NCBI GenBank assembly: GCA_963676565.1
Contig: OY781089.1
Location: forward strand, 704,001-768,000
DNA: 64,000 bases
Source of the DNA: Halarcobacter sp.
Lineage (GTDB): Bacteria; Campylobacterota; Campylobacteria; Campylobacterales; Arcobacteraceae
Direction: 5' to 3'
Position numbers: made by a program. Positions 18,001 through 21,000 of the stretch are shown here, piece by piece; position 1 is the first letter of the stretch, and each line of letters starts with the position of its first letter.

Positions 18001-21000
18001 ATGGTGATTATAAAAATGGACATGCACCAAGTGCTGCTGATGTTTGGAATATGTATGAAACTGGAAAACTTGAAGGTTGTTCATCATGTGGAACAACACC
18101 AGGTATGACTGGTTCAACTTCAACAGGTGGAAGTTGTGGCTGCTAAGGGCTTAGACCATGATTATATAGTCGATCCTAATACATTCTTTCATGATAATGT
18201 AACAGGTCCTAGGTCAGGGAAAGATGAAGATGAACCCAAATTTGGAGTTGGTCAAAAAGTAAAACTTATAAAAGAGATTGTAAACGATGGAACATATCCA
18301 CATTCTCCAATAGGTACATTAATGATGCCAAAGGATTCAATTGGATATATAAAATCTGTTGGAGAATTTCTTCAGGTAATTAGAGTTTATGAAGTGCATT
18401 TTTTAGGTGTAGAAGAGGCTCCTGTAGAGATAGTTGGATGTAGAGAAAATGAACTTGAAGCTATGGAAGATTATAAAGATGAAGTTAGAGAAGAGATTGA
18501 GTGGATGAGAAAACACAGAGAGAAATACTACAGTAAAGATTAATCATATGCTCCAAGTCAAACGAAAGAATTTTTTGGAATTTTTTCGTATGACTTGGAG
18601 CATAATTAATTTAATAAAGGAGAAGAAACATGGCAAAAGTTATTTTTATGCATTTTGATACTGAATCAGATGGTGTTTATGATGCAAAGATTGGTGAGCC
18701 TATCATTAGGTTAGCAAAGGAGAAAGGGATTCCTCTTCCTGCGGATTTAAAAGATTATTCTAAATGTTTAATTAAGGTTGAAAATTTGGCTGATGAAGAA
18801 CCTACAAGCTATATGGAAGATGAAGAACTAGAAGTATTAGTTGAACTTGGTGCTATTACAGAAGATGAAGCACATCAGTGTCAACAATTCACTATAAGTC
18901 CAAAAATTAGAATAGCACCTATGATGTTAGTTAAGGGTGATATTTTAGTTAAACCATATTCACTATAGTAATAAATTGAAGTATTAAAAGAGTAACTCGC
19001 AACGGTACCCTTAAAAAATGTCCATTTTTTAAGGAATCCGATGCTCTCTTTAGGATTTTGCTACTTTTTATCTTCACTGCGTTTGCTACAAGACTGCGCT
19101 ATGAAGAAGGATTTTTTATAAATCCTGCTAAAAAGTAGATAAATATGAAAAGGTCCCTTTAAAATTGGGACAATTTAAAAGGAAACAAAAATGACAACAA
19201 GAGTAGAGATAGTAAATGATTTTTTAGCTATTAATGTTAAACCAGGAAGTACAATTCAAGATGTAGTTGAAGCATCTGGTTCAGCTTTACCATTTGGGTG
19301 TAGAGATGGTGAGTGTGGAACATGTGTAGTTGAGATTGAGCAAGGTATGGAATTTTTATCTGATATCAATGAAAAAGAGATAAAAGTTATTAATGAAGTT
19401 TGTGCAGGAACTTGTACTGAAAAGACAAGACTTTCTTGTCAAATGAAAATAGTTAAACCTAACGGTATCGTTAGAATTAAGTATTAAAAAATATACACTT
19501 TTTTGTCTAAATTCGTTTAGAATTTAGGCAAAATAGGACTATGAGTATGGCACCTACATTATCAACATCAGTTGCACAAAAACAAAATCTTAATTTATCA
19601 CTTAAAATGTGGTTACCAATGTTGCAGTCATCACTGCAAGACCTAGAGAAACACCTAACAAATGTATCTTATGAAAACCCATTTTTAGAGATTAAAAAGC
19701 CAAAAGAGTTTTATAATAACTTTATGCCACAAGGAACAAGTGGAGAGTTTATTGAATCTTTAGCTTTATATGATGAATCATTACATGATAAAATCAGTGA
19801 ACAAATTTGTGCACCAAATTTTCCAACACCAAATTCACAAAAAGTTGCAATGGAGATTTTATGTGACATAAATGAAGATGGATATTTTGATGGAGATATT
19901 GAAAAGATTGCTGTAACATGTGGAGTATATAAAGAGTATGTTGAATCAATTAGACAAAGGTTTTCAAGACTAGAGCCATCTGGAGTTGCTTCAATGAACT
20001 TATCAGAATCATTTGAATTTCAATTAGATGCTTGTGATAAAGATATTGATGATGAGCTTTATAATTTTATTAAAAAAGTTGTAAAAGATATTGCTCACTT
20101 AGATAAATATGCTGCTCACCATAGATTTGATGATGCAAAGGATGTTATAAAATACTTTAATAATCCACCAGCAATCAATTATCTAAATACAAATACTCAG
20201 GTTATTCCTGATTTTTATGTGGATATTGGTGAAGATATTAATGTTAAGATTAATCACGCTTATTATCCTGATATTGAGGTAAAAGATCCTTTTTCTTCGA
20301 AGAATCAAAGTATAAAAGATAAACTAAAAGAAGCAAGGGATTTAGTAAATCTTTTAAATCTAAGAAAATCAACTTTATACAAAATTGTACTGTTAATTGT
20401 GGAGAAACAAATTTCATTTTTTGTTGGAGGAGAACTTAAACCTTTTTCAATGCAAGAATTAGCAGGAGAGCTAGGTTTTGCAGAATCAACAATAAGTAGA
20501 GCAGTTGCAAATAAACATATAGAGTGTAACCTTGGAATTTTTCCATTAAAACATTTTTTCACTAATGCTGTAAATGATAAAGATTTATCTTCATCTCAAA
20601 TTAAAAGTTATATTAAATCTCTAGTTGAATATGAAAAAAGAGAAACACCACTTACAGATCAACAGATATTAGAAATGATTTATGAAAAGTTTGATTTGAA
20701 AATGGTTAGAAGAACTATCACTAAATATAGAAAGATGTTAAATATTCCCTCTTCAAAAGAGAGAAAGAAACTTTATAAGGTAGAAAACCTATAAGTATCT
20801 TAAGAATTGTTACTTTCTAATGTGGACAAAAAATCTTTTTTATAAGACTTGGCAATACAATCCAAGTTTAAAATCTCATCTATAATTCTTTTATCACTTG
20901 GTGGAGTTTTTAAATAGTTACTTAAATCTTTTATTGACAAATTTGAAACTCTTTTTTCTAAAACCATTTTATCTTCAATATTAATAACACCTTCTTTTAG

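Follow-up and report, generated by a model that had tools for sequence, protein, structure and literature searches.

The window analysed here is a stretch of 64,000 nucleotides from Halarcobacter sp. (contig OY781089.1, positions 704,001 to 768,000); coordinates refer to it unless the contig is named. rpoN lies at 19541..20794 (+) and encodes 417 aa if read from the ATG at 19541, or 415 aa if read from 19547. Its frame is open, the product scores 329 bits against TIGR02395 (cut-off 277), and all three Pfam sigma-54 domains (PF00309, PF04963, and PF04552) are present. The activator-interacting, core-binding, and DNA-binding regions, the last with an RpoN box, place the protein in the sigma-54 family. 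rpoN is the last gene of the order nifX-DUF269-flavodoxin-nifW-nifZ-ORF-[2Fe-2S] ferredoxin-rpoN, in which the genes 5' of it occupy 16384..19487 (+), and it follows the nifX to ferredoxin block in 14/14 loci from outside the genus. A -24/-12 site at the head of this operon (16338..16353, +) is a candidate autoactivation promoter; rpoN thus belongs to a nif operon headed by a sigma-54 site, as in the Rhodobacter capsulatus type. Between the ferredoxin gene and rpoN is an inverted repeat (hairpin, 19501..19533, +), which has z <= -3.6 relative to shuffled sequence in 24 of the 25 parsed loci; across the family its location is conserved while its sequence varies. A putative weak sigma-70 -10 box (CAAAAT, 19529..19534, +) lies 6 nt 5' of the ATG at 19541 and may form a leaderless basal promoter of rpoN. 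In the 25 parsed loci, YANNAT is found 11-13 nt 5' of an in-frame ATG of rpoN in 19, and an SD-like motif ahead of rpoN in five.

Other -24/-12 sites on the forward strand precede nifN (12079..12094), nifH (23027..23042), a SIR2-like/clpX2 block (42617..42632), and the 4Fe-4S ferredoxin gene at 45223 (45171..45186). Two more (33295 and 33439, together 33295..33454) lie before a small ORF and an aldo-keto reductase/flavoprotein block. The nifH site stands ahead of nifH, an ORF, nifD, and nifK (23083..27485, +), and a similar site is present 5' of nifH in 18/20 relatives; in G320 none of the GGAAY-N6-TGCA type was seen there. This motif occurs in 10/32 upstream regions of the nif region versus 6/1687 elsewhere (p = 8e-15, a value inflated because the motif was derived from those same sites). 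With a spacer of 4, 5, 7, or 8 instead of N6 it is absent from the nif region, so the targets show the GG-N10-GC (-24/-12) spacing of RpoN. The survey's finding of sites before 6/29 nif-region genes versus 11/1581 elsewhere came from a different motif; the enrichment reappears, but the counts are not matched exactly. In the intergenic DNA checked in the Halarcobacter genome, no such site precedes flagellar genes, glnK, amtB, or glnA. The raw motif count was discarded as a discriminator of nif+ and nif- genomes, since each genome has 32-62 matches irrespective of nif status, and the motif is informative only at promoter position.

The genome has a single Sigma70_r2 match, RpoD, and a Sigma70_r4_2 search of it returned nothing above cut-off. 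A six-frame ECF search with an HMM trained on 14 ECF sigma factors from genus genomes (each scoring >=67.6 bits when left out in turn) gave a best score of <=13.5 bits. RpoD and RpoN are therefore the only sigma factors, as had been claimed. This holds at strain level, as genus genomes have 1-9 Sigma70_r2 matches each. The further claim that NifA is the sole full enhancer-binding protein is borne out by a single full PF00158 match, encoded by nifA at 36714..38261 (+). NifA has the expected domain set of GAF, AAA+ with a GAFTGA-type loop (here the variant GAFTDA), and a Fis-type HTH. It scores 518 bits against TIGR01817, slightly below the cut-off of 528.85, and this family ranks top among 30. 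One strong activator is present in 13/13 nif+ and 0/12 nif- genomes of the genus. In the family search, in which 18 candidates were scored per genome, a second strong activator was found in G074, G179, G181, and G183; NifA is usually the only activator in diazotrophic Arcobacteraceae.

The reported co-occurrence of rpoN and nifD in the genus is reproduced: both are present in the same 13/25 genomes, about 4-16 kb apart when on one contig. Across the 184 genomes of the family, rpoN is found in 66, nifD in 68, and both in 65, i.e., in 65/69 genomes positive for either. The four discordant genomes consist of 220-350 contigs each, and rpoN without nifD occurs in 1/66. In a sample of 221 Campylobacterales genomes, at least two rpoN matches are present in 27/40 nifD+ versus 3/158 nifD- genomes from outside the family. 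In two-copy genomes, one rpoN follows tsaE-lptB and the other ends a nifW-nifZ-ferredoxin block. Six such genomes (G276, G279, G320, G331, G350, and G360) are single contigs, which makes an assembly error unlikely. In the tree, 33 nif-linked and 23 lptB-linked RpoN proteins separate with support of 0.999 (FastTree) and 99.9 (fast SH-aLRT search). Halarcobacter RpoN falls in the nif-linked clade, as it also does in a quick tree, and shares 61-63% identity with the nif copies of f21 and 41-42% with its lptB copies. Among the named loci of this clade, 78/80 are nif-linked and none is beside lptB, although nif copies also supplied the query. The flagellar orthologue is marked by a tsaE-lptB-rpoN locus and by the lptB clade, and Halarcobacter rpoN belongs to neither; its lptB is followed by a convergent gene and no rpoN. 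Locus and phylogeny assign Halarcobacter RpoN to a clade of nif-linked paralogues that extends across Campylobacterales, and it is not a repurposed flagellar sigma-54. The proposal of a sigma-54 kept for nitrogen fixation thus stands in part: the evident targets are nif genes, there is one activator, and a site before nifS-nifU tracks rpoN. The word "kept", in the sense of an ancestral flagellar factor retained, is contradicted by the nif-paralogue clade and the missing lptB-adjacent copy.

The nifS-nifU operon lies outside the window (contig 1581466-1583667), and its NifS belongs to family TIGR03403. Upstream of nifS are an IscR-like box (contig 1581350-74), a sigma-70 TATAAT (contig 1581379-84), and a sigma-54 site (contig 1581418-33, TGGAATAGTTATTGCA). 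The operon is thus predicted to have tandem promoters, one sigma-70 and one sigma-54-type. The IscR-like box is present in 108/109 nifS upstream regions, and its motif has nifS, sodB, sufB, and apbC as top genome matches. A palindromic IscR-like box 5' of nifH (22912..22936, unstranded) shares the motif common to nifS, sufB, sodB, and apbC and is a candidate operator. The genome has three Rrf2 proteins; the two that were scored are both below the IscR cut-off. A suf operon (contig 1567604-1572578) lies 9 kb from nifS-nifU and sufB is present in 23/25 genus genomes, so that NifSU is not the sole Fe-S system, as it is in the Helicobacter pylori type. The earlier label "housekeeping" for nifS-nifU with a sigma-54 site is correct as to the site, but not if it implies the only Fe-S assembly.

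The nifS site is present in 12/12 nif+ versus 1/12 nif- genomes of the genus (G010 has no nifS match), as first reported. In the family, it is found in 38/46 rpoN+ versus 3/63 rpoN- genomes, in a set that leaves out G081, whose nifS start was not located in the sequence examined. Both the rpoN-nif and the rpoN-nifS-site tracking, earlier checked only in the genus, therefore extend to the family. The three rpoN- genomes with a site are sisters of nif+ genomes, and the inactivating changes in nif- lineages differ between lineages. The claim that the site is intact in diazotrophs and decayed otherwise agrees with these counts, but it is not family-wide: genus g19, with rpoN and nif present, has it in 0/4, g10 and g22 have weaker sites only, and G132 (g13) has none before nifS. 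In independent pairs on the nifS gene tree, strict sites give 5 same, 0 opposed, and 6 tied of 11 (p = 0.0625), and relaxed sites give 7/0/4 (p = 0.016, with the relaxation chosen post hoc). After kinship correction the association of site and rpoN is modest, with 5-7 concordant pairs and none opposed.

The base at -11 is A in 55/55 nif sites of the family, in 28/30 wider nif sites, and in the nifS site. It is T in 7/7 Pfam-confirmed flagellar promoters; these come from two genomes, and 6/12 G320 matches were retrieved, chosen among those ending in T. As a sequence pattern, A marks nif-type and T flagellar promoters in two-copy relatives, and the base may have a corresponding function. The canonical NifA enhancer has the consensus TGT-N10-ACA. 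It is not enriched in the promoter set (2/55 versus 3.3 expected), neither nifH nor nifS has it, and canonical boxes accompany only one nif-region promoter, that at 33295..33454. ACA-N4-TGT (15 versus 3.4 expected) and ACA-N15-TGT (13 versus 3.3) are enriched in the nif promoter set. They were rejected as the NifA enhancer, as these counts are not independent because of the many nifH orthologues in the set.

The RpoN regulon might be broader than nif and include iron uptake, respiration, and other functions, so that "only nitrogen fixation" would be wrong. Outside the nif region there are six motif matches against 0.37 in shuffles, and near-matches at canonical distance precede contig 491492 and 2599737. 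In Halarcobacter the motif stands 99-164 nt ahead of four non-nif genes; judged by their sequences, we take these to be feoA, ndh, selO, and one for an imelysin-like protein. However, ndh was dropped as a target because its site is missing in 3/3 relatives, and feoA because its site is present in only 1/2 nif+ relatives. The imelysin-like match is a palindrome, homologues of the remote targets at contig 2565926 and 2568301 sit within nif clusters of G092 and G312, and the near absence of rpoN without nifD in the family also makes a broader regulon quite improbable. Retention of the ancestral flagellar sigma-54, relocated to the nif island, is hardly credible. It would fit a genome with a single rpoN, the GGAAY core common to flagellar promoters of relatives, and the GAFTDA of NifA, which PMC3162934 describes for FlgR. 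Both copies nevertheless coexist in relatives and are split by the tree with full support, and the protein is ~20 points nearer to the f21 nif copies than to the f21 lptB copies. Halarcobacter has neither -24/-12 sites in the flagellar regions checked nor an FlgR partner, NifA being the sole full activator.

Two other alternatives concern the nifS site itself. The nif paralogue may be real while a closed sigma-54 complex at nifS damps nifS-nifU or shifts supply to SUF. Such a non-activating role would suit a site that spans roughly +28 to +43 relative to the predicted sigma-70 start, the lack of a canonical NifA enhancer upstream, and the overlap with the sigma-70 -10 region in g17. It is unlikely, as in g1-g3 the site lies 45-54 nt ahead of the nifS start codon, like nif operon promoters, and as G130 has a second, identical nifS-nifU copy within its nif cluster, which suggests demand for more NifSU. 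In addition, the iscN-nifU1-nifS operon of R. capsulatus is NifA-dependent (PMC6925177). A chance motif, or that of an unrelated regulator, could also have followed ancestry at nifS: related genomes are no independent samples, p stays above 0.05 in the pair test with strict sites, and the raw motif is frequent regardless of nif. The exact GG-N10-GC spacing, the nif-type A at -11, the different inactivating changes among nif- lineages, the lack of opposed pairs, and the variable placement relative to the box (g1-3, g17, g10, and g22) make this very improbable.

We consider it likely, from comparison of the genomes, that a nif-specific RpoN paralogue travels with the Campylobacterales nif cluster and drives the nif circuit including the nifS-nifU promoter. 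Arcobacteraceae lost the flagellar lptB-linked RpoN, and the nif copy is consequently the only sigma-54 in diazotrophic members. In the proposed circuit, a weak sigma-70 promoter directly ahead of rpoN would supply a basal RpoN pool. From the motif and established NifA biology, NifA would then fire sigma-54 at GGAAY-N6-TGCA promoters, and the nifX promoter reading towards rpoN would give positive feedback, which the hairpin may damp. A at -11 would specify the nif type and T the flagellar type in two-copy relatives. Since nifS-nifU is missing from the nif cluster, the general operon would carry an additional promoter of nif type, placed about 30-45 nt into the sigma-70 transcript. As this promoter is downstream of the IscR-like box, Fe-S assembly for nitrogenase could rise outside the usual feedback. 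In genomes that lack nif, nifA, and rpoN, the site has usually decayed, and the sigma-70 promoter and the box are retained. The nif RpoN thus appears to turn on a distant general Fe-S operon via an added promoter that decays once nitrogen fixation is lost. Four RNA runs, matched by species label, contained 0, 0, 1, and 2 partial reads.

A more speculative and rather doubtful extension is that Campylobacterales have two orthogonal sigma-54 systems that are distinguished by the -11 base and arose independently of those in Rhodobacter. Since the nif paralogue works with a single activator and a promoter code of its own, NifA would not need a classical enhancer, and gain of a 16-bp site would suffice for any gene to enter the nif regulon. 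If so, nifS-nifU was recruited several times, gaining a site at different positions (g1-3, g17, g10, and g22) that bypasses the IscR-like operator, and G130 took the alternative route of duplicating nifS-nifU into the cluster.

Poggio et al. 2006 reportedly described RpoN1 and RpoN2 of Rhodobacter (Cereibacter) sphaeroides. According to PMC11999139, RpoN1 serves nif with NifA and RpoN2 flagella with FleQ, and the -11 base is reported to be important in distinguishing their promoters. The Campylobacterales likewise have separate nif and flagellar paralogues and a split at -11, a likeness in position, base-to-paralogue match aside. In contrast, this pair spans an order, its -11 split is known from sequence alone, and Arcobacteraceae retain the nif member only. 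According to PMC6925177, R. capsulatus has a single rpoN in its nif cluster, in a nifU2-rpoN superoperon that is a NifA regulon member, with a weak constitutive promoter ahead of rpoN and a NifA-RpoN promoter further upstream. Halarcobacter rpoN is also single, in the nif cluster, and downstream of a sigma-54 site. It differs in phylum, in the gene order nifX...ferredoxin-rpoN, and in NifA as the only full activator; iscN-nifU1-nifS is within the nif cluster of R. capsulatus, whereas Halarcobacter has a distant general operon with a tandem promoter. Mesorhizobium loti R7A (PMC3538637) has rpoN2 on its symbiosis island, a second rpoN accompanying nif genes as here, but retains a chromosomal rpoN1, while these Arcobacteraceae have no other copy. 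H. pylori MisSU (NifS-NifU), described in PMC10653786 as the sole, essential Fe-S system, shares the epsilon-type NifS family TIGR03403; Halarcobacter has SUF too, and its nifS-nifU bears a nif-type sigma-54 site.

Nitrogen-fixing Campylobacterota feature in literature on sediments, seeps, and polar seas. A literature search, with most subscription papers outside its scope, found nothing on nif-linked rpoN, a sigma-54 nifS promoter, or transcription of nif genes in Campylobacterota, and Campylobacterota terms are absent from the main text of PMC12316311. The proposed circuit is concrete: a single sigma and a single activator, about a dozen promoters, a predicted nifS start, and a one-base specificity rule. 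A general Fe-S operon would join the nif regulon when a short site arises and leave it when that site decays. If NifA and RpoN form a self-contained pair with their own promoter code, they are a candidate orthogonal expression system. The flagellar RpoN-FlgRS system of Campylobacterota involves the same protein family and the GGAAY core, and PMC9321776 states that all Arcobacter have lost RpoN, listing A. molluscorum and A. nitrofigilis as lacking it. This published claim is qualified here: the loss holds for the flagellar orthologue, and the nif copy remains. The sigma-54 named for Malaciobacter molluscorum LMG 25693 (P0047) is 79% identical to Halarcobacter RpoN. An apparent loss of nifS in g8, g13, and some g2 genomes was discarded, as a 90-aa query had missed them; among five of the 74 missed genomes that were examined, the nifS of G130, G132, and G092 is divergent (45-46%), and in G029 and G032 no nifS adjoins nifU.

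The rpoN open reading frame (window 19541/19547-20794) encodes an intact sigma-54 (TIGR02395, 329 bits; three Pfam domains). It is the last gene of a nifX-DUF269-flavodoxin-nifW-nifZ-FeSII-like-ferredoxin block; nifHDK (23083-27485) and nifA (36714-38261) lie further downstream. The genome is one contig, 99.97% complete, and its single Sigma70_r2 match is RpoD. An ECF sigma profile made from 14 genus sequences, each scoring at least 67.6 bits in its leave-one-out run, scored at most 13.5 bits in this genome; the survey's count of two sigma factors is therefore correct for this strain. 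Sigma-70-family matches reach nine in other genus members. NifA is indeed the sole full enhancer-binding protein in the genome, and has the loop GAFTDA, which is described for FlgR (PMC3162934). A 252-aa protein near glnK-amtB and flgI (contig 231037-231795) has a degenerate sigma-54-activator-like domain without a GAFTGA-type loop and is possibly a relic of an activator.

The reported co-occurrence of rpoN and nifD in the same 13 of 25 genus genomes holds, and one strong activator marks the same 13. Of 184 genomes of the family Arcobacteraceae, 66 have rpoN and 68 have nifD, with 65 having both; the four that have one gene without the other (G120, G123, G143, G145) come from assemblies split into 220-350 contigs. 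The nifX block is followed by rpoN in 14/14 extra-genus loci checked, including complete genomes with nifD more than 200 kb away. Four genomes with rpoN have a second strong activator, and three without it have an activator-like gene. In-frame stops in rpoN and nifD of G073 (L138), and one stop in nifA of G009 (G009:C34:109321), represent ongoing decay or sequencing error.

The order sample comprises 221 genomes, 198 of them outside the family. At least two rpoN matches occur in 27 of the 40 non-family genomes with nifD, versus 3 of the 158 without. In the two-copy genomes fetched, one rpoN follows tsaE-lptB, the flagellar type in relatives, and the other ends a nifW-nifZ-ferredoxin block; the second copy in family f7 adjoins homologues of reductase genes from this nif region. 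In family f5, rpoN and nifD are found in the same 5 of 22 genomes, about 11 kb apart or less in the four whose positions are listed. In a 56-protein tree, from which two G202 copies on long branches, a partial copy, and eight near-duplicates were excluded, the 33 nif-linked copies stand apart from the 23 lptB-linked ones (support 0.999 and 99.9). The lptB copies likewise form one group in an earlier 62-row tree (support 99). This RpoN has 61-63% identity to the nif copies of family f21 and 41-42% to its lptB copies, and in this genome a convergent gene lies directly after lptB. The two-copy relatives, tree split, identities, and lptB locus without rpoN thus replace the idea that the ancestral sigma-54 was kept: the flagellar copy was lost, and the remaining rpoN is the nif paralogue. 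The statement that RpoN is lost in all Arcobacter (PMC9321776) fits the flagellar orthologue only, because the homologues include named sigma-54 proteins from M. molluscorum, A. ellisii, A. suis, and H. ebronensis.

Named records of the nif clade include Sulfurospirillum, Sulfurovum, Sulfurimonas, and Sulfuricurvum. With a query made from nif copies, 78 of the 80 clade loci listed (80 of 339) are nif-linked, and none of those 80 is beside lptB. Within this clade the family copies fall apart, the core genera grouping with f21, and genera g8, g10, and g13 with f5 and one f14 copy, which suggests that the nif copy moved together with the nif cluster. Genome G202 (L151, L156, L161) has three rpoN copies, two of them long-branch and adjoining neither nif nor lptB genes in the fetched DNA.

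The motif GGAAY-N6-TGCA lies upstream of 10 of 32 nif-region genes having an upstream gap versus 6 of 1687 elsewhere (p = 8e-15, which is too strong, as the motif was derived from the very sites scored). With wrong spacers it gave zero matches in the nif region. Seven sites in the window are at promoter position (12079, 16338, 23027, 33295, 33439, 42617, and 45171), and the intergenic DNA checked upstream of flagellar genes, glnK, amtB, and glnA yielded no -24/-12 site. Among the six matches outside the nif region, those at nifS and contig 2565926 sit at the usual distance of 44-55 nt. The candidate targets ndh (site missing in 3/3 relatives) and feoA (present in 1/5) were rejected. A variant site precedes a gene that weakly matches the NifB/NifX family (contig 1756144-1756536) in 3/3 nif+ and 0/2 nif- genomes; the gene itself occurs in nif- genomes as well. 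TGGTAC-N5-TTGCA occurs at the usual distance upstream of an AAA+ ATPase gene and an uncharacterised gene (contig 491492 and 2599737), candidate remote members of the nif regulon. At 33295-33430, a sigma-54 site and a ribosome-binding site lie upstream of a small ORF, about 30 codons long and fairly hydrophobic.

The -11 base, left free in the search, is A in 55/55 promoter-like sites of family nif loci, in the nifS site, and in 28/30 sites from named and order-level loci, where TGTA replaces TGCA in ten. Flagellar promoters of the two-copy genomes G279 and G320 end in TTGCT in 7/7 cases before Pfam-confirmed flagellar genes; all 8 G279 matches were fetched, and 6 of 12 from G320, selected from those ending in T. 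The uniformity of the -11 rule is weakened by G320, in which the search before nifH gave no GGAAY-type site. Twelve alignment columns distinguish the two RpoN groups, and columns 313 and 315 directly precede the STISR segment. A difference in -11 recognition is reported for R. sphaeroides RpoN1 and RpoN2 (PMC11999139). The f14 nif copies (L345-L347 of G320; L163-L171) have an altered RpoN-box tail, and their promoter code may differ.

Since rpoN ends a sigma-54 operon, it needs a basal source. A hairpin of varying sequence is kept between ferredoxin and rpoN: of 27 loci tried, 25 were parsed, and 24 of these have z <= -3.6. In 19 of the 25, a YANNAT hexamer stands 11-13 nt ahead of an in-frame ATG, mostly without a Shine-Dalgarno motif. 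In the window, the hairpin and a -10-like hexamer at leaderless spacing occupy 19501-19540. RpoN would be supplied by a weak sigma-70 promoter giving a leaderless transcript, together with read-through from 16338 driven by NifA, this being the least certain step; the nifU2-rpoN superoperon of R. capsulatus similarly has two promoters (PMC6925177). The canonical NifA enhancer shows no enrichment (2/55 observed versus 3.3 expected), so NifA acts either via another sequence or without an enhancer.

The nifS-nifU promoter region (contig 1581350-1581433, outside the window) comprises a 25-bp box, TATAAT, and the sigma-54 site. TATAAT is found in 23/24 genus genomes, and G023 has TACAAT. The description of this operon as housekeeping needs qualifying: it is the sole NifS-type operon in the genome, but a suf operon is also present 9 kb away; sufB occurs in 23 of the 25 genomes of the genus, and none of the 12 that are nif- lacks it. 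Two nif- genomes (G032, G029; L185, L186) have a diverged nifU (50%) beside sufB with no nifS adjoining; where SUF is enough, NifSU may be undergoing decay.

The nifS site, noted earlier to follow nif status within the genus, tracks rpoN in the family as well, in 38/46 rpoN+ versus 3/63 rpoN- genomes (109 of 110 matches, after removal of G081; the query matched nothing in 74 genomes). By nif+ genus, it is present in g1 (12/12), g2 (15/15), g3 (8/8), and g17 (3/3), and missing in g19 (0/4) and in g14 and g15 (0/2, rpoN not found); g10 and g22 (each 0/2) have weaker sites with GG and GC intact. Genomes that are nif- carry differing inactivating changes at the same place. The three rpoN- genomes whose site is intact group as sisters to nif+ genomes, as expected if site decay trails nif loss. 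Corrected for kinship on the nifS gene tree, 11 independent pairs gave 5 concordant, 0 opposed, and 6 tied (p = 0.0625), or 7/0/4 counting weaker sites (p = 0.016). Repeated gain is hinted at by the site's position relative to the box, which varies among g1-3, g17, g10, and g22. G130 (L182, L187) has two identical nifS-nifU copies, one within the nif cluster, from recent duplication or an assembly artefact.

As a whole, the reading as a nif-specific RpoN paralogue is considered quite probable, its functional steps all being deduced from sequence. Precedents exist for rpoN in a nif cluster, for nif and flagellar paralogues, and for NifA control of nifU and nifS. No account of these features was found in the Campylobacterota literature, searched mostly without subscription papers. 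The new elements are a nif paralogue present across the order, which survives as the only sigma-54 in Arcobacteraceae, the split at -11, and, on a general Fe-S operon, a tandem promoter that decays with nif loss.

The 25-bp box is present in 108/109 family nifS regions regardless of nif status. Its best matches in the genome are at nifS, sodB, sufB, apbC, one unassigned site, and nifH (window 22912-22936; contig 815175, 1572594, 1581350, 1775910, and 2434528); sodB and apbC are presumed names, based on their sequences. By its consensus and target set, the box is putatively IscR-like. It likely marks an Fe-S-status regulon of nifS, sufB, sodB, and apbC, which may extend to nifH, and the candidate binder is a three-cysteine Rrf2 protein at contig 1173253.

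The nif region is split between nifE and nifN (window 1731-12004) by TonB-ExbBD, two TonB-dependent receptors, and a diguanylate cyclase. A DGQHR-domain gene with uncharacterised neighbours (58651-59709), which follows a tRNA-like stretch, marks a possible defence insertion.
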